64,000 nucleotides of DNA from an uncultured Candidatus Saccharibacteria bacterium. Lineage in GTDB: Bacteria; Patescibacteriota; UBA1384; UBA12157; JAENIV01. The notes under the pieces are model-generated. The model searched no databases and was not told the DNA's origin. It saw only the letters and a list, made by a program, of their open reading frames with translations. Below, piece after piece: positions 5,693 through 58,369 of the stretch (the first letter of the stretch is position 1; the number at the start of each line of letters is the position of its first letter). The stretch spans positions 60,246 to 124,245 of the forward strand of contig CAYSSM010000001.1 of assembly GCA_964433905.1 (NCBI GenBank). Reading direction: 5' to 3'. Both the position numbers and the translations under genes were made by a program.

Positions 5693-5704
5693 CAAATTAT
5701 GCCA

Positions 5705-5747
5705 CATCTGACAATACACATCGCAAGTGAATTAGCGGATGTGTCTT
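5705..5747. repeat. REP-like palindromic element, copy 1: CCACATC..ACACATCGCAAGTG..TTAGCGGATGTGTC.
   Basis: The inverted repeat ACACATC / GATGTGT lies directly 3' of the RAYT gene. Two related copies are at 6432-6475 and 39250-39300. Confidence 0.6.
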
Positions 5748-5750
5748 AAA

Positions 5751-6398
5751 TTATTCATGTAAAAGATCTTTGATTCTTGTTAAATCTCGTGCGTAACTGG
5801 CATAATCTTCAACAAATTCCCGATAATTTTTAGGTGACCCTATTATTTTTAAAATAAAACCGGAATGGCAAAGCCGATCATTGGTATTGTTTAGGTAATG
5901 ATGATATGAAGACCAACTATAAGAAGAGCTGTCATTGCAAATACCAGAGGTATAAGGATTAAGGTGAAGATATCGAGACAAGTGTATCAATTGTTCGTCA
6001 GATTCTATCATAACGACTCGAAACCGTCCTTGGGTTAAAGTTCCCACTCTATCGTTCTTTTCATTATAATATCTTGTGTAACTATCCAAAGACCGTCGCA
6101 TGAAAATACTAATTCCATTATCAACAATCTGACGAAGAAGCAAATGAAAATGATTGGGCATCAGACAATAAGCATATATCTCCACTAGTGGTTTTTGAGG
6201 TTCTATTCTAAGAATTTTATCTATCTCCGTCTTATCAATTTTTGAGAGCCTAAGTTTATCTTTATTTTCAAGATAAAAACTGAAGGTTTTGAGTAGTCTT
6301 AAGTAGTCAAAATCGAAATCAAAAAGATTTTGTTTAGCGACTCCCCTATTATAGACATGATAAAGGTGGTCATTGGCATACACGGGTTTAACATACAT
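5751..6398 (-). CDS. REP-associated tyrosine transposase (RAYT; IS200/IS605-family Y1 HuH transposase).
   Basis: HVYNRG, the HuH motif CLMPNHFHLLL and SRYLHLNPY (catalytic Tyr region) are all present. About 215 aa, flanked by REP-like hairpins. Confidence 0.8.
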   Translation of the reverse strand: MYVKPVYANDHLYHVYNRGVAKQNLFDFDFDYLRLLKTFSFYLENKDKLRLSKIDKTEIDKILRIEPQKPLVEIYAYCLMPNHFHLLLRQIVDNGISIFMRRSLDSYTRYYNEKNDRVGTLTQGRFRVVMIESDEQLIHLSRYLHLNPYTSGICNDSSSYSWSSYHHYLNNTNDRLCHSGFILKIIGSPKNYREFVEDYASYARDLTRIKDLLHE

Positions 6399-6431: not shown

Positions 6432-6475
6432 CCACATCGTTAAAGACACATCGCAAGTGTTTAAGCGGTAGTATC
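6432..6475. repeat. REP-like palindromic element, copy 2: CCACATCGTTAAAGACACATCGCAAGTGTTTAAGCGGTAG.
   Basis: It shares CACATCG..ACACATCGCAAGTG..TTAAGCGG with copy 1 and lies just 5' of the RAYT start. Confidence 0.55.
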
Positions 6476-20602: not shown

Positions 20603-20716
20603 TTAACCCTGACGCTGCTTATGTTTGGGAGTACTGCAAATTACCCGCAATACTCCATGACGGCGAATTATTTTACATTTTTGACAAATTTTTTTGACCG
20701 ATGGTCTTACTTTCAT
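20603..20716 (-). CDS. rpmJ: Ribosomal protein L36 (37 aa; not in the ORF track).
   Basis: Hand translation of the minus strand gives [37 protein letters not shown]. The stop TAA is at 20603-20605. Confidence 0.85.
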
Positions 20717-20772
20717 AAGTATAAATCCTTGGTTGACACCCTGTGGTCTTTGCCACAGGGGGATTTACAAAC
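20717..20772 (-). promoter_or_regulatory. Conserved leader/repeat immediately 5' of rpmJ with a perfect 8-bp hairpin (CCCTGTGG-TCTTTG-CCACAGGG).
   Basis: In sense orientation it reads TTTGTAAATCCCCCTGTGGCAAAGACCACAGGGTGTCAACCAAGGATTTATACTT-ATG. It shares the 15-nt GGATTTATACTTATG context with map. Confidence 0.4.
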
Positions 20773-21132: not shown

Positions 21133-21966
21133 CTATTCGTCAAGTGTCATGGTGGCGAAAAGTTCATTTTTTCTTACCAATGACAGGATTAAACTTCTTA
21201 AAAAGGGAACTCTCAATTGGCTATGATACTGACTAATAGCCTTTTCCTTGAGTTTCAAATCATCATCGGAAAGTAAGAGTCTTTTCCATTGTTTATCATT
21301 TGTAACTACATCGACAGGTGGCAATAAAAATAAATTTGGACGATATTTTTTAGGTTGAGGGTAGCGATAATCATGAATTAAATATTTGTAAGCTGTAACT
21401 TTACTGTTATTTTTAATAACTTTTTCAACAATTTGGCCGGTTACTGAATGGTCGGGATGGATATCTAAAGGATGGGGATAAGCAATATAATTTGGCTCAA
21501 AATCGTCAATTTGATCTTTAAATAGCTTGTCTAATAATACTTCATCTTTCCCTCTTAATTTTCCGTCAGGCAAGTCTAAAAAGACTAAATTGTCGTTTTT
21601 TACTCCGAGGATACTAGTTGCTTTTCTAAATTCTTCATATCTTTTGACTTCTTTGCCCTGTTTATTACCGTCGGTCACCAAGATGATTTTCACAATTGCT
21701 TCGCGTTTAGTTGCTTCAATAATATAACCACCAACACCGATGGTTTCATCGTCAGGATGAGGAGAAAACACCAATAATTTGTCCCCCTTTTGAGGAACAT
21801 TAATATTATCCAGCAAATAAATAGCAGATTGCGGTAAAACATGGTTAAAACTGGCATAAATAAAGCTTGGAACAAAAAATAAACTTAAAACAATAACGAC
21901 TATTTGAATTTTGCGATTTAAAAATAATTTCTTTACTTTACTCATGGGTAAGAATTTCAACGCCAT
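21133..21966 (-). CDS. PIG-L/LmbE-family N-acetylglucosaminyl deacetylase-like protein with an N-terminal TM anchor.
   Basis: LLVFSPHPDDETIGVGGY is the HPDDE LmbE signature; ..VTDGN.. N-terminal hydrophobic helix. Confidence 0.6.
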   Translation of the reverse strand: MALKFLPMSKVKKLFLNRKIQIVVIVLSLFFVPSFIYASFNHVLPQSAIYLLDNINVPQKGDKLLVFSPHPDDETIGVGGYIIEATKREAIVKIILVTDGNKQGKEVKRYEEFRKATSILGVKNDNLVFLDLPDGKLRGKDEVLLDKLFKDQIDDFEPNYIAYPHPLDIHPDHSVTGQIVEKVIKNNSKVTAYKYLIHDYRYPQPKKYRPNLFLLPPVDVVTNDKQWKRLLLSDDDLKLKEKAISQYHSQLRVPFLRSLILSLVRKNELFATMTLDE

Positions 21967-22684
21967 CTTTTGTTACTGCGATTGTATGTTCAAAATGAGC
22001 CGATAAGGAATTGTCGATTGTTACAACAGTCCAGCCATCGTTAAGTATCTTTACTTTCCAATCGCCAGCTGAGACCATTGGTTCGATGGCCAATGTCATC
22101 CCCTCTTTTAAAACCGGTCCTGTTTTTCTTTTGCCAAAATTTAATATTGATGGTGGTTCTTGTAAATTTGTACCAATGCCATGTCCAGCCAAATCCCGGA
22201 TAATACTGTAATTTGCGCCTTCAATAATTGATTGAATACAATTTTGAATATCACCTAAATAAACTCCGGGTTTAATTTTTGATATGCCTTCGTGAAGCGA
22301 TTCTTTGGTAATTTTTAGCAATTGTTTTTTTTTAAAATCAATTTTACCGATAGCCACGGTGGCAGCGGTGTCGGTGTGATATGATTTCCATAATATTCCA
22401 ATATCAAGACCCAAAAGATCGCCCTCGCGCAAGATTCTGTTCGATGGTATGCCATGGACGACCTCATTGTTAACTGAAGTGCAAATTGTCGCCGGATAAC
22501 CATGATGACCTAAAAAAGATGATTTAGCACCGGATTTCTTAATTTCTTCTGTTGCGATGTTGTCAAGTTCTTTGGTAGTTGTTCCGGGTTTTGAAGCAAC
22601 AGTTAGTATATTTAAAATATGAGCGGCAATTTTACCACCTTCCTTCATAATTTGAATCTCTTTTTCTGTTTTAATCGAAATCAT
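21938..22684 (-). CDS. map: Methionine aminopeptidase type I.
   Basis: MetAP pita-bread fold motifs (..GHGIG.. and ..HFEHT..). Confidence 0.9.
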   Translation of the reverse strand: MISIKTEKEIQIMKEGGKIAAHILNILTVASKPGTTTKELDNIATEEIKKSGAKSSFLGHHGYPATICTSVNNEVVHGIPSNRILREGDLLGLDIGILWKSYHTDTAATVAIGKIDFKKKQLLKITKESLHEGISKIKPGVYLGDIQNCIQSIIEGANYSIIRDLAGHGIGTNLQEPPSILNFGKRKTGPVLKEGMTLAIEPMVSAGDWKVKILNDGWTVVTIDNSLSAHFEHTIAVTKDGVEILTHE

Positions 22685-22803
22685 AAGTATAAATCCATGG
22701 TTAACACCATATGGTCTCGGTCACAGTTCCATATATCTTTCAAAAAATAGTTTTTAATTTATATTAACGCCCTGCGGTCTCTGTCACAAGGGGATTTACA
22801 AAT
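22685..22803 (-). promoter_or_regulatory. Second copy of the rpmJ-type leader upstream of map, split by an insertion with the core duplicated.
   Basis: 22685-22726 AAGTATAAATCCATGGTTAACACCATATGGTCTCGGTCACAG and 22768-22803 ..CCCTGCGGTCTCTGTCACAAGGGGATTTACAAAT compare with 20717-20772. Confidence 0.35.
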
Positions 22804-26321: not shown

Positions 26322-26388
26322 GCTTTAATAATTCTCGTAGGATCGCATTAACAACTGTGCCTGTATTTGTCTCATTGTTTCTATTATA
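26322..26388. repeat. Exact 67-bp direct duplicate of the secY 3' end; the second copy is at 26445-26511.
   Basis: GCTTTAATAATTCTCGTAGGATCGCATTAACAACTGTGCCTGTATTTGTCTCATTGTTTCTATTATA is identical in both copies by inspection. A partial third fragment lies at 26305-26320. Confidence 0.8.
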
Positions 26389-26447
26389 TTTTGCCGAAGC
26401 AAAATTCGGAAATAGAAACAATATTTTTCAATAATTAACACTTGGCT

Positions 26448-27722
26448 TTAATAATTCTCGTAGGATCGCATTAACAACTGTGCCTGTATTTGTCTCATTG
26501 TTTCTATTATAACAGAAACCATAATTAAAATACCAGTGCCACCAATTACTAAAGTATTTATCTTAGTAATTGCCTGGATAATAAACGGCAAAACAGCAAT
26601 AACTCCAAGGAATAAGGCACCGGTAAGATTAATTCGAGAGATAATTCTTGCCAGATAAGATGAAGTTTCCCCTCCGGGTCTGACACCAGGGATAAAACCG
26701 CCTTGTTTTTGCAGATTTTCTGAGATTTGATTGGGTTTTAAAACAATCCCAGTATAAAAGAAGGTGAACAAGATAACTAATATAAAGTAGAAAATTCCAT
26801 AAAACAAATTGTTATTAAACAAATTAGCAACCCATGTAGAAGCGGAAGCGAGCCACTCTGAACGAGCCTGAGTCAAGACTTTAGCCGCTACCCCAGGAAA
26901 GATCATGATCGACATGGCAAAGATAATTGGGATGACCCCAGCGGTATTTACTCTGATTGGAAGATAAGAGTCAACTCCGCCGTACGATTTCATGCCGCGA
27001 ATGCGCCTGGCGTATGATACGGGTATTTGGCGCCGACCCTCATTAACAATAATAATTAAAATAACTACAGCAATAGCAATGAGCCCAAATAAGGCTAGAC
27101 TAATAATTTTAGTCGTATCCATAACTGCCAGCGTATTTCTTACTTGGGCAGGTACACTGGCAATTATTCCTAAGGCAATAATCAACGAGATACCGTTACC
27201 GATGCCATTTTCAGAAATTAATTCTCCAATCCACATCAGCAAGATCGTGCCGGCGGTAATCGAAAGTAACATTACCGCTAATTGGAGCGGCGTCCATGAA
27301 AACAATATCCCTTGACTTTTAAGCAAAGTTAACATGCTAAAAGATTGGATCAGTGCTAACGGCACGGTGATAATTCTCGTCCAGTAATTAATTTTTTTCT
27401 GACCTGATTCACCTTCCTTTCGAAGTTCTTCCAATGAAGGAATCACCATGGTCAAAAGCTGAACAATAATCGTGGCGGTAATATACGGTCCGACACCCAT
27501 CATAATAATCGAAAAATTTTCCATCGAACCGCCGGAAAACATATTTAATAAACCAAAAATTTGGTTTCTCGAGAAAAAAGTTCTCAAAGCTTCAATATCA
27601 ACACCGGGCAGAGGAATATGAGCTAAAACTCTCGTAATAACCATTAGACTAATAGTATAGAGAATCTTTTTTCTTAGATCAGGCAGGGTAAAAACTTGAT
27701 TAATTGTTTGCCAAATACGCAT
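26448..27722 (-). CDS. secY: Preprotein translocase subunit SecY.
   Basis: 10-TM SecY pattern. Position between rplO and (normally) adk. Confidence 0.9.
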   Translation of the reverse strand: MRIWQTINQVFTLPDLRKKILYTISLMVITRVLAHIPLPGVDIEALRTFFSRNQIFGLLNMFSGGSMENFSIIMMGVGPYITATIIVQLLTMVIPSLEELRKEGESGQKKINYWTRIITVPLALIQSFSMLTLLKSQGILFSWTPLQLAVMLLSITAGTILLMWIGELISENGIGNGISLIIALGIIASVPAQVRNTLAVMDTTKIISLALFGLIAIAVVILIIIVNEGRRQIPVSYARRIRGMKSYGGVDSYLPIRVNTAGVIPIIFAMSIMIFPGVAAKVLTQARSEWLASASTWVANLFNNNLFYGIFYFILVILFTFFYTGIVLKPNQISENLQKQGGFIPGVRPGGETSSYLARIISRINLTGALFLGVIAVLPFIIQAITKINTLVIGGTGILIMVSVIIETMRQIQAQLLMRSYENY

Positions 27723-32317: not shown

Positions 32318-32986
32318 TTACAAACTTTCGATTATATCACCTTTATATATCCATACTTTTACACCAATGATGCCGTAGGTAGTTAAAGCGTCAACTTGAG
32401 CATAATCAATATCTGCCCTAAGTCGACCTAAAGGTATCGATCCATTACCATAATGTTCACGACGAGCGATTTCCGCCCCGCCTAATCGACCGGCGATAAC
32501 AACCTTAACACCCAAGGCTCTTTTTTCCATAACTTTGGCAATCGTCTGCTTGATGGCTCTTTTGTAAGCAATTCTTCGCTCGATTTGATGAACAATTTGT
32601 TGAGCCACTATTTCAGCCGATAATTCTCCGTTCTTAATTTCCATGATTTCAATTTCAATTTTTTTATTTGCTAAACCGGTCTTATTATTTCTTATTTGAA
32701 GACAATTTTTTAATAAATACGTTTTAATCTCGTTAATTCCTTGACCACTGCGGCCAATTAAAATACCCGGTTTTGAGCTATAAATAGCAACTTTTATGGC
32801 ATCTTGATCGCGCGATAATTCTATTTTTGCAACTCCGGCGTTTTTGCCGAATCTTTTGCCAAGCAGGGTTCTAATCTCAATATCTTCAGCTAAATTTTTA
32901 GCAAAGCTCCTGGGGGCAAACCATTTTGACTGCCAATTTTTATTTAGTTGTAAGCGAAAGCCAATCGGGTTTACTTTATGACCCAT
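32318..32986 (-). CDS. rpsC: Ribosomal protein S3.
   Basis: MGHKVNPIGFRLQL... is the canonical S3 N-terminus, so I chose M9 of the ORF-track ORF as the start. Confidence 0.85.
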   Translation of the reverse strand: MGHKVNPIGFRLQLNKNWQSKWFAPRSFAKNLAEDIEIRTLLGKRFGKNAGVAKIELSRDQDAIKVAIYSSKPGILIGRSGQGINEIKTYLLKNCLQIRNNKTGLANKKIEIEIMEIKNGELSAEIVAQQIVHQIERRIAYKRAIKQTIAKVMEKRALGVKVVIAGRLGGAEIARREHYGNGSIPLGRLRADIDYAQVDALTTYGIIGVKVWIYKGDIIESL

Positions 32987-33551
32987 TTTTACCTCTTTTT
33001 TTATTTTCAAAAGGCTGAATACCTCGTAGCCCTTCGGTCTGAGACCTCAGGATCGAAGACTTGCTACGAGGATGAAGCCTATTTGGAAACAAACTTGCCC
33101 CATCGGGGATACTCCGCCGCTTGCTGCGGAGTAGTTTATTTTCGTTTGAAAATATTATTGTTGCGTGCGATGATCGTTTTAAGATTGCGGTGGCCCGACC
33201 TCGATGAATCATGCGACGGCGTTTTAATTTTGGCCCTTCGTTAATCATTATTGACTTAATATAGATGGGGCCGTCAAGATTATATTTATTTTTAGCAATG
33301 TCGATCCCATTCTTGATGACCGAAATCAACGGTTTAGCGGCAAGCTTAAAAGAAAAAGTCAAAATATCAACTGCTTTTTCCGCTTCCTGGCCGATAACTA
33401 AATGTGCCACTAAGCTCATTTTATCGGGAGTCGTTCTAATAAAACGATCGCGGACAACTATTTCCTGAATTTTTTCAGATTTCTTGTTATCGAATTTAAC
33501 TTTATCTATTTTTTGCGTATCGTTTACTTTTACTTTTTCCACAATTGCCAT
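32976..33551 (-). CDS. rplV: Ribosomal protein L22 with a ~50-aa basic C-terminal extension encoded by a GC-rich hairpin repeat (copy C of the new family).
   Basis: The L22 domain spans about aa 28-140. The frame then runs through 33131-32976 without a stop and ends 11 nt inside rpsC. Confidence 0.8.
   Translation of the reverse strand: MAIVEKVKVNDTQKIDKVKFDNKKSEKIQEIVVRDRFIRTTPDKMSLVAHLVIGQEAEKAVDILTFSFKLAAKPLISVIKNGIDIAKNKYNLDGPIYIKSIMINEGPKLKRRRMIHRGRATAILKRSSHATIIFSNENKLLRSKRRSIPDGASLFPNRLHPRSKSSILRSQTEGLRGIQPFENKKRGKNGS
33016..33137 (-). repeat. Hairpin repeat family, copy C (minus orientation), inside the rplV 3' end.
   Basis: Its reverse complement reads AAACTACTCCGCAGCAAGCGGCGGAGTATCC..GCAAGTTTGTTTCCAAATAGG..TCCTCGTAGCAAG-(23-nt insert)-CTACGAGGTATTC. 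It aligns with 51451-51545. Confidence 0.7.
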
Positions 33552-39249: not shown

Positions 39250-39300
39250 TTTCTATCCTTTAGACACATCGTTATATCCACATCGTAAGTGTATTAGTAG
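39250..39300. repeat. Solo REP-like palindromic element, copy 3.
   Basis: AGACACATCGTTATATCCACATCGTAAGTGTATTAGTAGATGTGCTC shares CACATCG(N7)CACATCG(C/T)AAGTG and the CACATC/GATGTG inverted repeat with 5705-5747. Confidence 0.55.
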
Positions 39301-39357
39301 ATGTGCTCTTTCCTTATTTAGATGCTATTTTATGTTCTCGACTATGCTCGAACTAAA

Positions 39358-51209: not shown

Positions 51210-51452
51210 ATGAAACAATCAATTGCATTATTAACTATCTTTTTGAGTTTAATCGTATTTTCCAATGTTACCAATGTCGCCAGAAATCAAAAACAAACCT
51301 TAGTTACTCCGTCGCCAGTAGTCAACAAAAGTGATATCAAGGATGCAGAAGTCAACCGCTACAACAACAAGTACCAAATCCAAGTTAATTATGATGTTAA
51401 TTCAATTACTGAAAAATTAAACTGGATAACTCAAAACGAATTAGCCAAATAA
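51210..51452 (+). CDS. Small secreted protein (signal peptide plus a ~55-aa mature part).
   Basis: Strong SD TAAGGAGCAAAAAATG and signal peptide MKQSIALLTIFLSLIVFSNV. Confidence 0.5.
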   Translation: MKQSIALLTIFLSLIVFSNVTNVARNQKQTLVTPSPVVNKSDIKDAEVNRYNNKYQIQVNYDVNSITEKLNWITQNELAK

Positions 51453-51545
51453 ACTACCTCGCAGCAAGCTGACGAGGTATCCCTGAAGGGAAAGTTTGTT
51501 TTTAACAGGTTTTCATCCTCGTAGCAAGCTACGAGGTATTCAACC
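51451..51545 (+). repeat. Hairpin repeat family, copy A (full length, two hairpins).
   Basis: AAACTACCTCGCAGCAAGCTGACGAGGTATCCCTGAAGGGAAAGTTTGTTTTTAACAGGTTTTCATCCTCGTAGCAAGCTACGAGGTATTC begins within the stop codon of the small ORF. Confidence 0.7.
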
Positions 51546-51606
51546 TCTGAAAATAAGCCACACTGCGATAAAACCTCAATGTATTGCCTAAGATGAAAAG
51601 TGTATT

Positions 51607-51637: not shown

Positions 51638-52183
51638 TTAGTTGTTGGTTAAAAGTTTTCTTAAACGCAAAGTGTTTGCCACATCGCTATCACTTGCATT
51701 TAGACTTGATAAAAATTCGTCAAACTCAGGATTATTAAAAAATAAATTATCACATTTAAGGCTACAAATTACCGAATATTGCCTGAATAACAATTTACCT
51801 ATCGGCCGACTCAGTTCTGCCGGAGTGGGAGAAAGTATCATAAAATAAAATTTTTGTTTTTCTCTTGCAAGTATTTGAAAATCGTTTAATTTATTTTTAT
51901 CAAGATCGTCAGACTGCCCTTTGAAAATTACTATATCTCCAGAATCATAACAAAATGCAGCTGCTTGGATGATACTTTTTTTGCCAACAGCTGGATTTGC
52001 AATATTTACTACCACATGATCAGGTAAAATCGTAATCGGCCCTTTAGTATTAGGCAGCAATTCATCAAGCGTTAAAAATATGCCAAAAGGATAATATAAA
52101 CACAGAACAGGAAATATTTCAGATCCATCAGCCTTAAGACCGATAGATGCCACTGAAGCTGTTAGCACACTGGCTACTGGCAT
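51638..52183 (-). CDS. Hypothetical protein (181 aa).
   Basis: The true start is AAGGAGGAAATT-ATG at 52183. The 105-aa N-terminal extension in the ORF track (to 52498) runs through a terminator and into the neighbouring GC-rich gene, so it is spurious. Confidence 0.55.
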   Translation of the reverse strand: MPVASVLTASVASIGLKADGSEIFPVLCLYYPFGIFLTLDELLPNTKGPITILPDHVVVNIANPAVGKKSIIQAAAFCYDSGDIVIFKGQSDDLDKNKLNDFQILAREKQKFYFMILSPTPAELSRPIGKLLFRQYSVICSLKCDNLFFNNPEFDEFLSSLNASDSDVANTLRLRKLLTNN

Positions 52184-52268
52184 AATTTCCTCCTTGTCAA
52201 AGTACAATTCATTCTTAATTACAACATTATAACTAATATTATTATTTCGCAAGATAATCTTTTTAGAT

Positions 52269-52304
52269 AAAAAAAATGCGCCCGGGACAAAATGTCCCGG
52301 GCGC
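52269..52304 (-). terminator. Strong GC-rich rho-independent terminator: GCGCCCGGGAC-loop-GTCCCGGGCGC (11 bp) followed by an 8-U run.
   Basis: Plus strand: AAAAAAAATGCGCCCGGGACAAAATGTCCCGGGCGC. It lies 28 nt after the stop of the SdrD-like gene. Confidence 0.8.
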
Positions 52305-52331
52305 TTAAAGTTCGTCACCGTCTTGCGGTCA

Positions 52332-54110
52332 CTACGGGTAAATGACCGTTCCCGGATCAGGCAAGATGAACGGAACAGCGTCGTTATTGTTGAGTAAGTC
52401 GAGCTGACCCGCCATCGCCGTTCGTTGGGAATCGCTCCCACTCTGCCAGACCTGAATTGCCTGGGTAACCAACGTCTGCGTTGACACCCAAGAACCATTC
52501 AACCAGATCGCAGCTCCTACACCACCCAGCCGATGCCGACAGTTCATAATGAAAGCATCGAGCTGTTGAGCCAGTTGTTCACGCGGATCGCCGCCGGCGT
52601 TGGAATCAACAAGGAAATGGCTTTGCTCGGCCAAGGCCGAACCGGCAGGAGCGATGGTCTCTCCCCAGTCGCCGTTGGCAGCAGCAACGGGGGTTCCGTT
52701 AGCAAAAAAACCGTCAATCGGCTCGTCGCCGGCGCCAAAGTAACTGGACGGCGCTTGCCACGGAGCCAGACTGTTAAGGTATGCAATGTCAGACGGAGTA
52801 GTTTCACCCAACCCGTTCTTGTTATGCCAATACCCCTTGGTATCAAAATCAGCCTGGCCTTGGCGAATGTTGCCGAACTCCACTCGAGCCGAATCACCTG
52901 AAGCCAGTTGAATCTGCCTTGTCATGGGAGTAGTGTTCACCCACCCACCAGAAAGAGGCATCCGTTCGGTGATATCGTACAAACCCGGCATGATCCAGAA
53001 GGTGTCACAACCGTTAGACTTGGTTATGGAAACGCTGTCCCATACCCACCCTGCCACGGTTGTGCCATGCTCGTAGATCCACCAGCCGGGAATACCAGGC
53101 TCGCCTGCGTCCCAGATACCGTCGCCATCGAGGTCGTAGAACTTACAGACCGTTAGACGGGCCAACTGGATGTTGCCGAAGATAACTTCATGAGTTTCCC
53201 GGGAAGTCCCGGCAACCAAGAAATAGGCCGCAGGATAGTCGCGGATGCGGACGCCGTCGAGGTAGGTGCAGGTGTACATCCACCCTTCGCGCTGTTCCTC
53301 AACGAAGTTCCAAAATCCAGCCGGTTCAGTGGTGATCTGGATGGGCGTATAGTAAGTGTTGGTAACACCGAGGGGATCGATTGCATCAACCCGCCAACCA
53401 GTGATTTCCAACTCGCCTGCATCCCAGATACCGTTACCGTTAGCATCGTTGAACTTCTTAACAGTCACGACCGGCGGCGTATATGGAGGACCATTACGAC
53501 GCACCTTAAAGTTGTCGGTCTTGCTGTCCGGTGGCCTGAAACCGTGATAATTCCCCGGGCTGTAGCCGTTGTCAACGAGGTTGGGATCGCCGATGAAGTT
53601 TTCGCACGGAGTTATCCATACCTTGTAGACACCACCCTTATTGGGTGTGTCAAGGTAGGGCATCAACTGAACAGTGATCGCGCCCAGTTCAGGGTGATCG
53701 ATATCGATGCCCGTCTTGTGAGTGCAGTCGACTTCCACCCAGACACCCCTGACCTTCGTCAGCTTGGTGCACGGGTAGACATAGTCGATGACCCCAAGAG
53801 CACTGACGTGGACCTTGCGGCACTTAACCGCGTCTGTCGAGAGAAGAACCTTCCCTGACGGGTCAGTGACCTGAAAGTAGTAATCGCCCTCGTTAAGCCC
53901 CGCCGCGCCCGCAGGCGCGTTGGACCCAGGCCCGCCATCGAGATAGACATCCTCTTTGGCCGCGAAGATGTTAGCGTTGACTCGCGAACCGTCAGCCGTG
54001 GTCGTAAAAATCGCCCCCGGCATCGGCCCGGCCAAAGCCTGAGTGCTGGCCAGTGCCAACACCCCCAAAGTAGCCAGCACAACCATAATCAGCACAACCC
54101 TTCGTCCCAT
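52332..54110 (-). CDS. Secreted protein with two SdrD-B-like (Cna-B type, Ca-binding) repeat domains; GC-rich, probably of foreign origin.
   Basis: Signal peptide MGRRVVLIMVVLATLGVLALASTQALAGP. FNDANGNGIWDAGELEITGW and FYDLDGDGIWDAGEPGIPGW match the D.NGNG..D.GE.G..G motif. Codon usage is strikingly G/C-rich versus the flanking genes. Confidence 0.75.
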   Translation of the reverse strand: MGRRVVLIMVVLATLGVLALASTQALAGPMPGAIFTTTADGSRVNANIFAAKEDVYLDGGPGSNAPAGAAGLNEGDYYFQVTDPSGKVLLSTDAVKCRKVHVSALGVIDYVYPCTKLTKVRGVWVEVDCTHKTGIDIDHPELGAITVQLMPYLDTPNKGGVYKVWITPCENFIGDPNLVDNGYSPGNYHGFRPPDSKTDNFKVRRNGPPYTPPVVTVKKFNDANGNGIWDAGELEITGWRVDAIDPLGVTNTYYTPIQITTEPAGFWNFVEEQREGWMYTCTYLDGVRIRDYPAAYFLVAGTSRETHEVIFGNIQLARLTVCKFYDLDGDGIWDAGEPGIPGWWIYEHGTTVAGWVWDSVSITKSNGCDTFWIMPGLYDITERMPLSGGWVNTTPMTRQIQLASGDSARVEFGNIRQGQADFDTKGYWHNKNGLGETTPSDIAYLNSLAPWQAPSSYFGAGDEPIDGFFANGTPVAAANGDWGETIAPAGSALAEQSHFLVDSNAGGDPREQLAQQLDAFIMNCRHRLGGVGAAIWLNGSWVSTQTLVTQAIQVWQSGSDSQRTAMAGQLDLLNNNDAVPFILPDPGTVIYP

Positions 54111-55318: not shown

Positions 55319-56311
55319 TTACAAATAATCCAATGGGTTGAGTACTCGACCATTTTTAGTGATTTTGAAATGAACATGCACACCTGTCGACCAGCCGGTA
55401 TTGCCCATAACACCGATAACCTGACCTTGATTGACCCATTGGCCGGCAGAAACTGCAAAAGTTGACATATGCCCATAAAGCGTTTGCCAGCCGTCGCCGT
55501 GATCAATCACGATAAAATTGCCGTAACCACCACCCCAACCACGGGTGGCGCGGACAACTCTTCCTGAGGCTGAAGCAAAAAGGGTTGTTCCCGAACGCGA
55601 AGTTAAATCAACTCCATCATGAAAAGCCTCAAATGAAGTTCGACCAAACCCTTGAGACATATCCCAACCGGATGTAGGTCGCCTGAAAGTCCCCGAAAAA
55701 GGAATTTTAGTTGAGGCTCCGGCAACTTTTTTCTTCTGTAAATTTTGTAACTGGGTCGGCGCCAAATCCTGCGGTGGAATTTTTAATTGCTGACCGGGCT
55801 TAATCATATCTGACGACAAGCTGTTTGCAGTCTTAATAGTCGAAACTTTCAATCCATATTTCCAAGCAATGCTGGCGATGGTATCGCCGCCTTCAACCGT
55901 ATAAACGATTGTTTTTGTCCTTTTTTCATCTTTTTTCGATTCTTCAGTTACTTGAGTCGTGGTAAGTTCCGGCTTTGAAAGAAAATCTTGATCTTCCATC
56001 GCCAGAGCTACCGATAAAGGATCTTCCTCAATTTTAGTGGTAAAAGGTCCAACTTGAGAAACTACATCGGCAACTTCCGCCGGCGAAAGATCCATAATTT
56101 CTTCCGAAGGCTGAAAGTAATAAGAATTTTCTTGGGCTTTTGCCACATCAGCCACCACCGTAAAAAAAGCTATTATCATTATTGATAAATAGGGTAAAAT
56201 CCTTTTTTGATTAAAATCAATTAATCCCTCCGGTATGCGGTTGCGGATACGTTTTGACAGGATATCTTTTCTGAGGACAATTCTCTCTAAGATTTTTTTA
56301 AAAATATTCAT
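55319..56311 (-). CDS. Peptidase M23 (LytM) with a LysM domain and an N-terminal TM.
   Basis: LysM YTVEGGDTIASIAWKYGL..GQQLKIP and the M23 motifs HDGVDL / GNTGWSTGVHVHFKI. Confidence 0.8.
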   Translation of the reverse strand: MNIFKKILERIVLRKDILSKRIRNRIPEGLIDFNQKRILPYLSIMIIAFFTVVADVAKAQENSYYFQPSEEIMDLSPAEVADVVSQVGPFTTKIEEDPLSVALAMEDQDFLSKPELTTTQVTEESKKDEKRTKTIVYTVEGGDTIASIAWKYGLKVSTIKTANSLSSDMIKPGQQLKIPPQDLAPTQLQNLQKKKVAGASTKIPFSGTFRRPTSGWDMSQGFGRTSFEAFHDGVDLTSRSGTTLFASASGRVVRATRGWGGGYGNFIVIDHGDGWQTLYGHMSTFAVSAGQWVNQGQVIGVMGNTGWSTGVHVHFKITKNGRVLNPLDYL

Positions 56312-56370
56312 ATGTATAAGGGAAAGCCTACAATATCCAGTTTAACTTAACACGCAAGAATGTCAAATAT

Positions 56371-56430
56371 AAACTACTCTGCGGCTTGCCGCAGAGTATC
56401 CTGCGGAAAGTTTGTTTCCAAACAGGTTGA
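56371..56430 (+). repeat. Hairpin repeat family, copy B (short; lacks the second hairpin).
   Basis: AAACTACTCTGCGGCTTGCCGCAGAGTATCCTGCGGAAAGTTTGTTTCCAAACAGGTTG lies directly downstream of the infB stop. Confidence 0.65.
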
Positions 56431-56440
56431 AAATAAAAAC

Positions 56441-58369
56441 TTATTCCCCCAATTTTCGAGTTCGTTCTTCTTTTTTATAACATTCCAATGAGTCCCCCAC
56501 TAAAATTTTGGTTGGAGATTCTACTTTAAGACCGCATTCAAAACCCTCCGCCACTTCGGAAGTGTCTTTTTTATTTTGTTGTAAAGAGGTAATCTCGCCC
56601 ATACCAATAGTATCTTTATCACGAACAATCCTGACTTGGCAATGATCTTCTAATTTTCCTTTTGTTACCCTTCCACCAATAATTTTTTCATTTTTAGATG
56701 TCTTAAAAACAGCTAAGATTGATAGCCGACCGATTTCAGTTTCAATGATTTCCGGCTCAAGTAATCCTGATAGAGCGGCGGTTAAATCATCCAATAATTG
56801 GTAAATAATATCGTAGATAGAAATTTTAATATTTTCGCGGCGAGCCAAATTCATAACATCGGTTGACGCTTTAACGCGAAAGCCAATCACCAAAGCATGG
56901 GAGGCAACCGCCATATTGATATCTGACTCGGAAATATCTCCAACTCCCTCGTGAATAATTTTTATTTTAACTTCTTTATCTTCCAAATTCTTAAGTGAAC
57001 TCTTAATCGCTTCAAGCGAGCCGGCAACATCAGACTTAAGGACAATTTTGAGTTCTTTTATTTTTCCCGCTTTGATATCTTGCGAAAGTTCGGTGATGGA
57101 AATAACTCTGCGTTTAATTGTTTTTGTTTTAGTTAATTCTTTGGCAGTCTTTTCATTTTCAACAACCAAGAATCTGTTGCCAAAATCCGGTAGGTCCTGC
57201 AAACCGGCGATTCTAACCGGAACCGAAGGAGCAGCTTCTTTTATTTTCTTGCCCAAATAATTTTCCATAATCCTAACTTTGCCATAAGTATCACCGATAA
57301 CAATAGGGTCACCGATTTTTAGAGTTCCCTCTTGAACTAAAACCGTAGCAATGGGACCCATACCAGATTGCATATGCGACTCAATCACCACGCCAGTTGC
57401 AGAAAGCGTTGGATCAGCTTTAAGCTCTTTAAGGTCGGCAACCAGTAAAATCATTTCCAACAAACTATCGATATTTTTTGTTTCCTTGGCTGAAACATTG
57501 ATCATAGGCACATCACCGCCCCACTGCTCCGACAAAAGACCGTTGTCGGCTAATTGTCTCTTGGTTTTATCAATATCGGCATCGGGCAAGTCAACTTTAT
57601 TAATAGCCACGACAATTGGCACACCCGCTTCCTTGGCATGGTTTATAGCCTCAATCGTTTGCGGTTTTACGCCATCGTTTGCCGCTACCACCAAAACAAC
57701 CACATCGGTAATATTAGCCCCGTGAGCTCGCATGGCCGAAAAGGCCTCGTGTCCGGGAGTGTCCAAAAAAGTGATTTTGCGTGATTTAGACGCAAAATCA
57801 TCCTGAGTTTTACGAAGGATCTCTCGATTAGATTTGCTTCCTTGAGATGATGTTTCGTCTTTTGGACGAATTGTGACTTGATAAGCGCCGATATGCTGAG
57901 TGATGCCGCCTGCTTCGGTGGCAATAACATCCGTGTGGCGGATGGCGTCAAGCAATTTGGTTTTACCATGGTCAACATGGCCCATAACCGTAACTACCGG
58001 AGATCGCAGTTTTAGATTCTTTTTAACTTGTTTTAGAGATGCAACTATTTTCTCTTCTTCCTTCAACTTTACCTCAACGGCAAACTCATCAGCAATAATA
58101 GCCATTGTGTCAAAATCAATGAGTTCATTAATCGTCGCCATGACACCGTTTTTGACAAGTTTGGAAATTATTTCCGTAACGGACAAATTCAAAATATCCG
58201 CAAATTCCCGCACCGTTAAAACAGGCGAAATTAAAACAATTCTTTTTTCGGTTTTTTCTTTTTCGACTTTTGCCTCTTTAACCGCTTTGTTTTCTTCCAC
58301 TTGCGTTAAGCGCTTGCCTTCGGCTTTAGCTTCTTTTTTGCTTAATTTTCTTTGCTTTCTTTTTGCCAT
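56441..58369 (-). CDS. infB: Translation initiation factor IF-2.
   Basis: G domain [20 protein letters not shown]; 642 aa. Confidence 0.95.
   Translation of the reverse strand: MAKRKQRKLSKKEAKAEGKRLTQVEENKAVKEAKVEKEKTEKRIVLISPVLTVREFADILNLSVTEIISKLVKNGVMATINELIDFDTMAIIADEFAVEVKLKEEEKIVASLKQVKKNLKLRSPVVTVMGHVDHGKTKLLDAIRHTDVIATEAGGITQHIGAYQVTIRPKDETSSQGSKSNREILRKTQDDFASKSRKITFLDTPGHEAFSAMRAHGANITDVVVLVVAANDGVKPQTIEAINHAKEAGVPIVVAINKVDLPDADIDKTKRQLADNGLLSEQWGGDVPMINVSAKETKNIDSLLEMILLVADLKELKADPTLSATGVVIESHMQSGMGPIATVLVQEGTLKIGDPIVIGDTYGKVRIMENYLGKKIKEAAPSVPVRIAGLQDLPDFGNRFLVVENEKTAKELTKTKTIKRRVISITELSQDIKAGKIKELKIVLKSDVAGSLEAIKSSLKNLEDKEVKIKIIHEGVGDISESDINMAVASHALVIGFRVKASTDVMNLARRENIKISIYDIIYQLLDDLTAALSGLLEPEIIETEIGRLSILAVFKTSKNEKIIGGRVTKGKLEDHCQVRIVRDKDTIGMGEITSLQQNKKDTSEVAEGFECGLKVESPTKILVGDSLECYKKEERTRKLGE

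Follow-up and report, generated by a model that had tools for sequence, protein, structure and literature searches.

A probably mobile family of small folded repeats with three copies in a 64-kb stretch of a Saccharibacteria genome

Direct reading and alignment of the window (the whole 64-kb stretch of DNA that was analysed) identify three homologous loci, here called copies A, B and C. Copy A starts at the TAA stop of an 80-aa ORF (51210-51452), beyond which lies a convergent gene. Copy B is placed between infB (56441-58369, minus strand) and the gene of an M23/LysM peptidase (55319-56311, minus strand), antisense to both, while copy C lies in sense orientation in the S10 operon, between rplV and rpsC. 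The order of blocks is common to all three, (A)AUAAACUAC being followed by a hairpin (P1), GUAUCC, a small hairpin (P2) and (A/C)AAGUUUGUUU, and each copy has GAAAAUAA at its 3' end; in copies A and C only, (A/C)AAGUUUGUUU is followed by a helix arm, UUCAUC, a further hairpin (P4), GGUAUUC and the returning arm. The architecture is that of a three-way junction, in which a helix P0 encloses P1 and P2, followed by a long helix P3 capped by P4, which makes five helices. The features are as follows.

51447 to 51558, plus strand: copy A, full-length element of 112 nt, covariance-model score 113-114 bits
51447 to 51455, plus strand: copy A, 5' strand of P0, AAAUAAACU
51450 to 51452, plus strand: copy A, TAA that is the stop codon of the ORF at 51210-51452
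51456 to 51478, plus strand: copy A, hairpin P1, ACCUCGCAG-CAAG-CUGaCGAGGU, with one bulged A
51480 to 51491, plus strand: copy A, small hairpin P2, UCCC-UGAA-GGGA
51493 to 51504, plus strand: copy A, central U-rich strand, AGUUUGUUUUUA
51517 to 51536, plus strand: copy A, hairpin P4, CCUCGUAG-CAAG-CUACGAGG, with UUCAU and UAUUC on its sides
51542 to 51558, plus strand: copy A, 3' strand of P3, AACCUCUGAAAAUAAGC, with the conserved AAAAUAA end at 51550-51556
56367 to 56436, plus strand: copy B, a derivative without P4, covariance-model score 54.6 bits
56376 to 56397, plus strand: copy B, hairpin P1
56400 to 56406, plus strand: copy B, weak P2
56409 to 56417, plus strand: copy B, central strand
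56429 to 56436, plus strand: copy B, GAAAATAA
33000 to 33143, minus strand: copy C, full-length, with a nested hairpin within P4, covariance-model score 99 bits
33133 to 33141, minus strand: copy C, 5' strand of P0
33111 to 33132, minus strand: copy C, hairpin P1
33098 to 33109, minus strand: copy C, hairpin P2
33087 to 33095, minus strand: copy C, central strand
33022 to 33071, minus strand: copy C, hairpin P4
33031 to 33060, minus strand: copy C, ~30-nt insert within the P4 loop that folds as a hairpin (GUCUUCGAUCC...GACCGAAGG)
33000 to 33016, minus strand: copy C, 3' strand of P3
32976 to 33551, minus strand: rplV (L22) frame, lengthened to 191 aa through copy C, which is read in the frame AAU-AAA-CUA

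The pattern TAAACTAC-N16-26-GTATYC has exactly three matches in the window, where 0.01 would be expected by chance. A repeat finder pairs 33060-33141 with 51447-51528 (copies C and A; 82 nt, 74%) and 33107-33142 with 56366-56401 (copies C and B; 36 nt, 81%), and a covariance model run with its filters off over the whole 64 kb returns copies A, B and C and no fourth. The copies also fold more stably than their shuffled sequences, with z values from -5.1 to -6.7 (copy A, -43.9 kcal/mol, z = -6.7; copy C, -55.9 kcal/mol, z = -6.3). An earlier sequence-only reading of this DNA had reported three related loci whose first hairpin differs between copies through paired changes, and both observations are borne out here. 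Its loci were rightly placed but their extents have been redrawn to those listed above, and the two hairpins that it described are present, as parts of an architecture to which P0, P2 and P3 also belong. The three copies represent three subfamilies with 42-66% identity to one another, each of which has closer relatives in other organisms. Copy B, which had been taken for copy A with ~36 nt removed, is only 55% identical to copy A; it is a P4-less derivative of a different subfamily, the full-length form of which, with the same P1 and P2, is found at locus L127. The insertion that had been noticed in the second hairpin of copy C is real, at ~30 nt rather than 23 nt and with a hairpin fold of its own, and an insert of the same type is present in L155.

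A GAAAATAAA repeat stands on each side of copy C, which is inserted in frame and measures exactly 135 nt, or 45 codons, between the two. The rplV frame lengthened by it takes in the rpsC start codon at 32986 and stops 11 nt inside rpsC. The window's L22 is identical to the L22 of Berkelbacteria bacterium GW2011_GWB1_38_5, and its identity to the other homologues (n = 62) is at most ~53%. All 62 of these other homologues are shorter (118-165 aa), none extends over more than 72% of the query and none has the tail of the window's L22, which, at 54 aa, is therefore a product of the insertion. Further cases of read-through or of an internal in-frame position are seen at L126 and L050. About half of all copies are open in the reading frame of copy C, and read-through therefore requires no special selection; a coding role for the element was considered and rejected, the read-through of copy C being unremarkable on this count.

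RNAalifold, applied to 26 copies, and a model-based alignment that covers 78 give four helices, P0, P1, P2 and P4, the last of them a hairpin on its own. In P0, AAAUAAACU is paired with AGUUUGUUU (AAUAAACU with AGUUUGUU), and the strands that join P0, P1 and P2 are 0, 2 and 2 nt long. In P3, the central U-rich strand is paired with the AAAAUAA of the 3' end, and the strand after AGUUUG is paired with the strand before AAAAUAA. Across the 78 aligned copies 95.7% of the pair cells are paired, which falls to 33-51% when the partners are slid against one another, and compensatory changes on both sides affect 18 of the 28 pairs (326 cells), a level reached by none of 500 shuffles. These changes involve seven of the nine pairs of P1 across the family and all eight pairs of P4, and the closing pair of P2 is C-G in 44 copies and U-A in 33. 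The inner arms of P3 match their own partners at 4.62, as opposed to 3.99 for arms swapped between copies (the maximum of 200 permutations was 4.23), and they differ between subfamilies with complementarity kept (UUUUUAA/UUAAAAA, UUUCCAA/UUGGAAA and UUUUGCG/CGCAAAA; AGGUU/AACCU as against AGGCU/AGCCU). While the stems drift by compensatory change, the joining strands UAAACUAC, GUAUYC, AAGUUUGUUU, UCAUC, GGUAUUC and AAAAUAA are constant, although the constancy of UAAACUAC and GUAUYC, like that of AGUUUGUUU, is partly forced by scans that demanded these exact words.

P0 is invariant, in part because TAAACTAC and AGTTTGTTT were required by the scans, and support for it comes from unusual copies. 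Derivatives that have lost both P1 and P2 retain an AAUAAG/CUUGUU hairpin (L001:452 and L032:6361), in the divergent copy L043:202 the P0 beside P3 reads differently, as GAAGC/GCUUC, and two copies with an altered central strand carry matching changes in its partners. In the common form the central UUUGUUU has two possible partners, one at each end of the element, and energy minimisation chooses the 3' one in 46 of 61 copies; the central strand of copy A, AGUUUGUUUUUA, likewise has complements at the 5' end (P0) and at the 3' end (outer P3). U-G wobble pairs in P0 and P3 are possible on the sense strand only. P1 and P4 have similar stems and loops within a copy, change together between copies and are both followed by GUAUYC. 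The loops of P1 and P4 switch between CAAG and CTTG, which suggests inversion of the palindrome's loop at the level of DNA.

A scan of genomes with the exact-word pattern, one genome per species, returned 54 loci, of which ~35 in ~15 genomes are true copies, with a P1 hairpin and the remaining architecture; the other ~19 have no P1 hairpin and were rejected as chance matches, as expected for a pattern of ~21 fixed bases. In metagenomes at least 118 loci were found, at least ~95 of them genuine, and ~20 chance matches to the pattern without a P1 hairpin, among the matches listed, were set aside. Genomes and metagenomes together hold at least ~130 further copies, those in metagenomes coming mostly from groundwater and sediment. 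The hosts include Saccharibacteria, Levyibacteriota, Berkelbacteria, Nealsonbacteria, Shapirobacteria and Microgenomates, and some host MAGs are labelled Gammaproteobacteria. One Saccharibacteria MAG contains at least 9 copies and the 'Bacillota' MAG FK_Sedi_B_Bin.101 at least 11. The label of the latter appears to be correct, judging by a YchF gene of Bacillota type on the same 3.9-kb contig as one of its copies, the best named relatives of which are Firmicutes at ~50% identity. The metagenome scan also recovered the window's own locus (L120), and a second contig of the window's genome (L125) contributes another three copies, including one that separates secD from secF. Nothing genuine was found on viral contigs, where two matches to the pattern both lacked the hairpins and were put down to chance, and plasmid and phage sequences gave no blastn match.

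Rfam 15 returned tRNA alone for the whole window at the gathering threshold, and only noise for copy A at E values up to 10 (best 19 bits against a threshold of 40). No CPR repeat or RNA motif that describes the element was found in the literature. The family, of ~105-115 nt, is real and widespread and was not found described in the literature, and the proposal of a new family in the sequence-only reading is upheld by the further copies, by the covariation in P1, P2, P4 and inner P3 and by the comparison with Rfam, in which no family was matched. That reading had also kept the element apart from the repeat next to the RAYT gene of the window, rightly so, since the two sequences are unrelated. 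Its choice between a MITE or palindromic element and a structured RNA stands in respect of a mobile repeat; a MITE in the strict sense it is not, for terminal inverted repeats are absent.

We consider it probable that the element constitutes a new family of interspersed repeats that are non-autonomous and spread horizontally, comparable in kind to bcr1, BOX, RPE and REP. Such an element would have spread both within and between genomes, through several lineages of Patescibacteria (CPR) and at least one Bacillota-like lineage. The genes on either side of the copies are unrelated to one another, with no recurrent gene family among them; near-identical copies occur within one genome (L030/L036, L035/L038 and the FK_Sedi set); and copy A shares 95% identity with L121 and 93% with L040, the latter in a Saccharibacteria MAG whose rpoB and rpoC are only 68-70% identical to those of the window. 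Derivatives are common and include forms without P4, forms without P1 and P2 and forms with foreign hairpins nested in the P4 loop. P4 has been deleted independently in copy B, L146, L172, L174 and L150, and in some derivatives it is replaced by an unrelated hairpin. There are also 'mini' derivatives joined at the two GGTATYC repeats, head-to-tail dimers with one AAAATAA in common and a 33-nt AATAAGCAAAGCTTGTTATTCAC... sub-module that is inserted or arrayed in tandem (arrays at L070 and L102), and two contigs end inside P1.

No filled-versus-empty site was found, copy A being unchanged in all 12 same-population contigs with the exact upstream ORF, and the protein database holds no close relative of the window's genome (L22 homologues at most ~53% identical); for these reasons transposition is something that we can only infer. 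No transposase lies beside any copy, and in the 1.24 Mb adjoining known copies there is no autonomous parent, that is, left and right ends set apart with a gene between them; orphan right ends proved to be deletion forms. Conservation of the fold could be understood if only those copies that keep it on a single strand are recognised and copied by a putative mobilising machinery. The leading guess for this machinery would be a HUH/Y1-type enzyme (IS200/IS605 or RAYT) that works on hairpins of single-stranded DNA, a choice weakly suggested by the lack of terminal inverted repeats, by the similar, same-orientation hairpins P1 and P4 with their GUAUYC, and by a common junction word without clear duplication.

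The element begins and ends with TAA, and its copies are located at gene ends. Among 93 non-redundant copies there are 31 in which an ORF of 60 codons or more is terminated in frame by the first TAA, and an ORF enters the element in another frame in only ~5 genuine copies. Insertions scattered at random near gene ends should show no preference among frames, and the target is therefore suggested to be a pre-existing TAA, often a stop codon. Integration at or just after such a TAA would retain the stop and hence be harmless. TAA is present at both junctions and nothing longer is common to them: the base preceding the 5' TAA may be A, T, G or C and does not match the 3' end, and the common 3 bp at most are inseparable from the conserved ends of the element. 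A target-site duplication longer than TAA was rejected on the ground that the base before the 5' TAA does not follow the 3' end.

Between genes that run in the same direction the element is in sense orientation in 29 cases and antisense in 9, and sense copies are found within highly expressed operons (rplV-rpsC, rpoB-rpoC, rpsG-fusA and secD-secF). On the antisense strand the P1 hairpin is followed by GUUUAU(A/U)UUU, and a terminator scan flags copies B and C; on the minus strand of copy B, P1 is followed by GTTTATATTT, an arrangement that resembles a terminator and lies 5 nt past infB. The terminator-like antisense strand would explain the bias of 29 to 9. The sense orientation would be tolerated inside operons, while antisense copies, in which P1 and a U-rich tract resemble a terminator, would halt transcription and persist only where an operon ends, the situation of copy B behind infB. 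The terminator-like strand could there be put to use.

The element comes closest in kind to the small structured interspersed repeats, of which bcr1 of the Bacillus cereus group, itself transcribed, is the best example. Like bcr1, the element is a small non-coding interspersed repeat without a transposase, whose distribution is not conserved among relatives, with short direct repeats at its ends and a multi-stem fold kept by compensatory changes, all of which have been described for bcr1 (PMC3184786). The element thus has the features of a bcr1-type structured interspersed repeat, as a matter of kind and not of family. Unlike bcr1, which is one of the 'Group A' bcr repeats and is ~155 bp long with 5-bp flanking repeats, the element combines a three-way junction with a long helix, occurs in CPR and an uncultured Bacillota lineage and has only TAA at its junctions, and it is by description that it is set apart from bcr1. 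The Rickettsia palindromic elements (RPE) are folded repeats of 100-150 nt that lie within reading frames or extend them non-destructively (PMC3184786); copy C, which adds 45 codons to L22, and the in-frame copies L126 and L050 are similar to these, although most copies of the element are intergenic and start at a stop codon. One account describes REP sequences as imperfect palindromes, each of them single and 20-40 nt long, that carry GTAG or CGTC on the 5' side (PMC3733652). In common with REP and REPIN, which RAYT (Y1 HUH) transposases mobilise, the element has G+C-rich hairpins and many copies dispersed at gene ends, a tetranucleotide adjoins the stem (CTAC in the element, GTAG in REP) and a RAYT-like gene is present in the window. 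Unlike REP, it is ~110 nt long with five helices, its CTAC has the opposite polarity and lies in a stem, paired with GUA, and the RAYT gene (5751-6398) is flanked by a different repeat. A link to this RAYT gene and its REP-like repeat was rejected, there being no sequence relation and no adjacency elsewhere.

The BOX element of Streptococcus pneumoniae is made up of modules that vary in number and may be lost or repeated in tandem, and it has a stable fold and an intergenic location. The element resembles it in its stable fold and intergenic position and in that its P4 module and 33-nt sub-module are lost or arrayed. BOX is listed among such repeats (PMC3184786), but it has no sequence relation to the element and other hosts. 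A MITE was rejected, as the left end, TAAACTACC..., is unlike the reverse complement of the right end, TTATTTTCAGAGG..., and the sole long inverted pairing is P3, from the middle of the element to its 3' end. The core boxes R'' and R' of integron attC sites are RYYYAAC and GTTRRRY, and the cassette arrays that contain them lie beside an integrase gene. An attC site was rejected too, only AAC and GTT matching the core boxes and the copies being solitary and inside core operons. In the hammerhead ribozyme the junction strands are 7, 3 and 1 nt long; the hammerhead and other small ribozymes were set aside in view of the 0, 2 and 2 nt of the present junction and of the lack of any match to an Rfam ribozyme model.

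Several other explanations have to be weighed against a mobile repeat. The element could be a structured cellular RNA module that acts in cis from the 3' untranslated region or between cistrons, is transcribed along with the gene before it and has been dispersed only secondarily, with roles such as mRNA processing, stabilisation of the 3' end or a link between termination at the UAA within P0 and translation of the following gene. Four helices that covary over very distant lineages, the exact start at stop codons and the excess of sense copies between same-direction genes are in keeping with this proposal, as are the several sense copies in highly expressed operons, the switch-like competition of P0 and outer P3 for one U-rich strand and the sense-strand specificity of U-G wobble. 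It is nevertheless rather unlikely: G-U pairs are not in excess over A-C mismatches in P1 and P4 (26 as against 45), the top and bottom strands fold equally well (32 as against 29), and antisense copies are as intact as sense ones (6 of 9 and 18 of 29). Whole domains are frequently lost, the neighbouring genes share nothing, near-identical copies are found in unrelated genomes within a patchy distribution that crosses phyla, and neither an Rfam family nor a known ribozyme core is matched. The data favour the mobile repeat over the RNA module, the marks that a sense RNA should leave being absent. That the copies arose by chance similarity, or as ordinary terminator or REP hairpins formed independently at each site, is extremely improbable. 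G+C-rich hairpins at gene ends in an A+T-rich genome, with a terminator-like antisense P1, would agree with such an origin, and yet the three pattern matches against 0.01 expected, the covariance-model scores of 55-114 bits, the blocks of unpaired sequence common to at least ~130 homologous copies and the absence of a U tract after the sense-strand hairpins all speak against it.

A more specific form of mobility would be that of a PATE-like miniature of an IS200/IS605-family or RAYT-type element, in which P1 as the left-end and P4 as the right-end hairpin are bound by a Y1 HUH transposase and insertion takes place 3' of a TAA target on single-stranded DNA, without target duplication. The likeness to PATE lies in the absence of terminal inverted repeats, in two subterminal same-strand hairpins that are alike within a copy, change together between copies and are each followed by GUAUYC, and in insertion at a short word without clear duplication. 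TAA stands 5' of the element and at its 3' end, with a single copy of the word in head-to-tail dimers, conservation of the stems shows no preference for wobble pairs of the RNA type, and the genome does have a Y1 transposase gene (Y1_Tnp), at 5751-6398. This gene, however, is flanked by an unrelated repeat, D1 (5702-5745 and 6432-6475), no Y1 gene adjoins any copy, and no related full-length IS or other parent with these ends was found. Known IS200/IS605 elements have conserved ends, whereas the hairpin stems of the element vary freely, P4 can be lost or replaced, and P0, P2 and P3 have no counterpart in those elements, so that we regard this origin as quite unlikely. RAYT homologues were seen at 2 of the ~130 loci among the matches listed, neither adjacent to a copy, and a weak RAYT match beside the L150 copy turned out to be a ComEA-like gene. 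Another form, given only a slight chance here, would be a new kind of guide-directed mobile nucleic acid whose U-rich AGUUUGUUU pairs with both junctions and so sets cutting and landing at TAA stop contexts. The partner of this strand would be UAAAC together with the A-rich flank at the 5' junction and AAAAUAA at the 3' junction, in loose analogy to the guide-cleavage-site pairing of IS200/IS605 or to the internal guide of an intron. The central strand changes from U to A in only two copies (L125:1504 and L084:7212), in which the 5' and 3' partners have both changed from A to U. A T at the same 5' position is uncompensated in ~13% of copies, which counts against a guide, and the separate, non-overlapping P0 and P3 of the divergent L043:202 argue for plain structure. 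The head-to-tail dimers with their single junction word are, for their part, consistent with a guide.

As a probable mobile repeat, the element is of interest in several respects, any biological role past self-propagation being hypothetical. Of its properties, the guide-like three-way complementarity and the targeting of stop codons are the most worth following up. For annotation, it produces false C-terminal extensions, such as the 191-aa L22, and for assembly it is a cause of breakage, with two contigs ending within it, while in one orientation it may supply terminators. CPR genomes are tiny, tightly packed and thought to be poor in repetitive DNA, and a folded repeat is nonetheless tolerated in essential operons, including those of ribosomal proteins, rpoB-rpoC and secD-secF. 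Its apparent movement between phyla would make it a marker of horizontal exchange in groundwater communities, and identification of the enzyme that recognises it could bring to light a mobilisation system specific for hairpins, in organisms that resist culture on their own.

Some copies of the roughly 110-nt folded element carry further repeated sequence. A 33-nt sub-module, AATAAGCAAAGCTTGTTATTCACYMCGTTCAT, which folds as a small hairpin of its own (AAUAAGC/GCUUGUU), occurs as a single insertion in the 5' arm of the element's helix P3 at several of the loci recovered by pattern scans of genomes and metagenomes (L043/L140, L147/L167 and L103), and as a tandem array of at least three units in L070 and L102, about 100 nt past the element start. 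A second repeat family, ...GTCATTCTGAACGAAGTGAAGAATCTC...GAGATCCTTCGC..GCTCAGGATGAC, is present in the Bacillota-like MAG FK_Sedi_B_Bin.101, where its loci show 78-85% identity across ~170-180 nt and are placed as follows:

L026 4329-4511, nested in the P4 loop of an element copy
L032 3292-3466, nested in the P4 loop of another element copy
L026 1576-1744, standing alone
L051 5052-5233, standing alone
L037 4260-4424, standing alone

Short-read assemblies are evidently broken by the element: the contigs of L181 and L182, which are independent assemblies of one population, both end within hairpin P1 of copy A, 22-24 nt beyond the stop of the ORF. On L125, another contig of the window's genome, the 5' junction (1488-1510) of one copy holds the 7-mer TCTATAA twice in succession (TCTATAA-G-TCTATAA-ACTAC), the first of which contains the stop codon of an upstream sugar-phosphate nucleotidyltransferase-like gene; this doubling could be either a footprint or the product of a duplication during insertion. 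The same copy has an altered central strand, GUUUGUAUU. A further copy (L050, 1379-1491) lies antisense within an opposite-strand ORF (923-2344) encoding a multi-pass membrane protein of 473 aa, and the frame stays open across it, reflecting either an internal insertion like those of the Rickettsia palindromic elements (RPE) or a chance fusion of two genes.

Other features of the window include a G+C-rich block at 52000-54000 (52% G+C, against 34-42% for the genome), which holds this ORF:

52332-54110, - strand, 592-aa protein with a sub-threshold match to SdrD_B only

The gene adjoining it varies among strains of one population, at 181 aa versus 226 aa in L180. A 67-nt perfect repeat (26322-26388 and 26445-26511, one copy 123 nt downstream of the other) corresponds to the 3' end, stop codon included, of a 424-aa gene at 26448-27722 that is probably secY, and reflects local duplication or else an error of assembly. 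Ahead of rpmJ (L36) and of a 248-aa gene at 21938-22684 there is a conserved leader module, consisting of UUUGUAAAUCC, a G+C-rich hairpin and GGAUUUAUACUUAUG; this module could serve as a promoter common to both genes or as a 5' untranslated element, or could be one more small repeat:

20713-20771, - strand, leader module
22681-22802, - strand, leader module with two hairpins

A transposase gene in the window is flanked on both sides by a 44-nt repeat (CCACATC...ACACATCGCAAGTG...) in direct orientation, which has a third copy elsewhere:

5702-5745, 44-nt repeat
5751-6398, - strand, IS200-like Y1 transposase (RAYT-like), 215 aa (Pfam Y1_Tnp, E = 1e-6)
6432-6475, 44-nt repeat
39264-39307, 44-nt repeat, directly downstream of fusA

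This 44-nt repeat is a REP-like family, distinct from the hairpin element.
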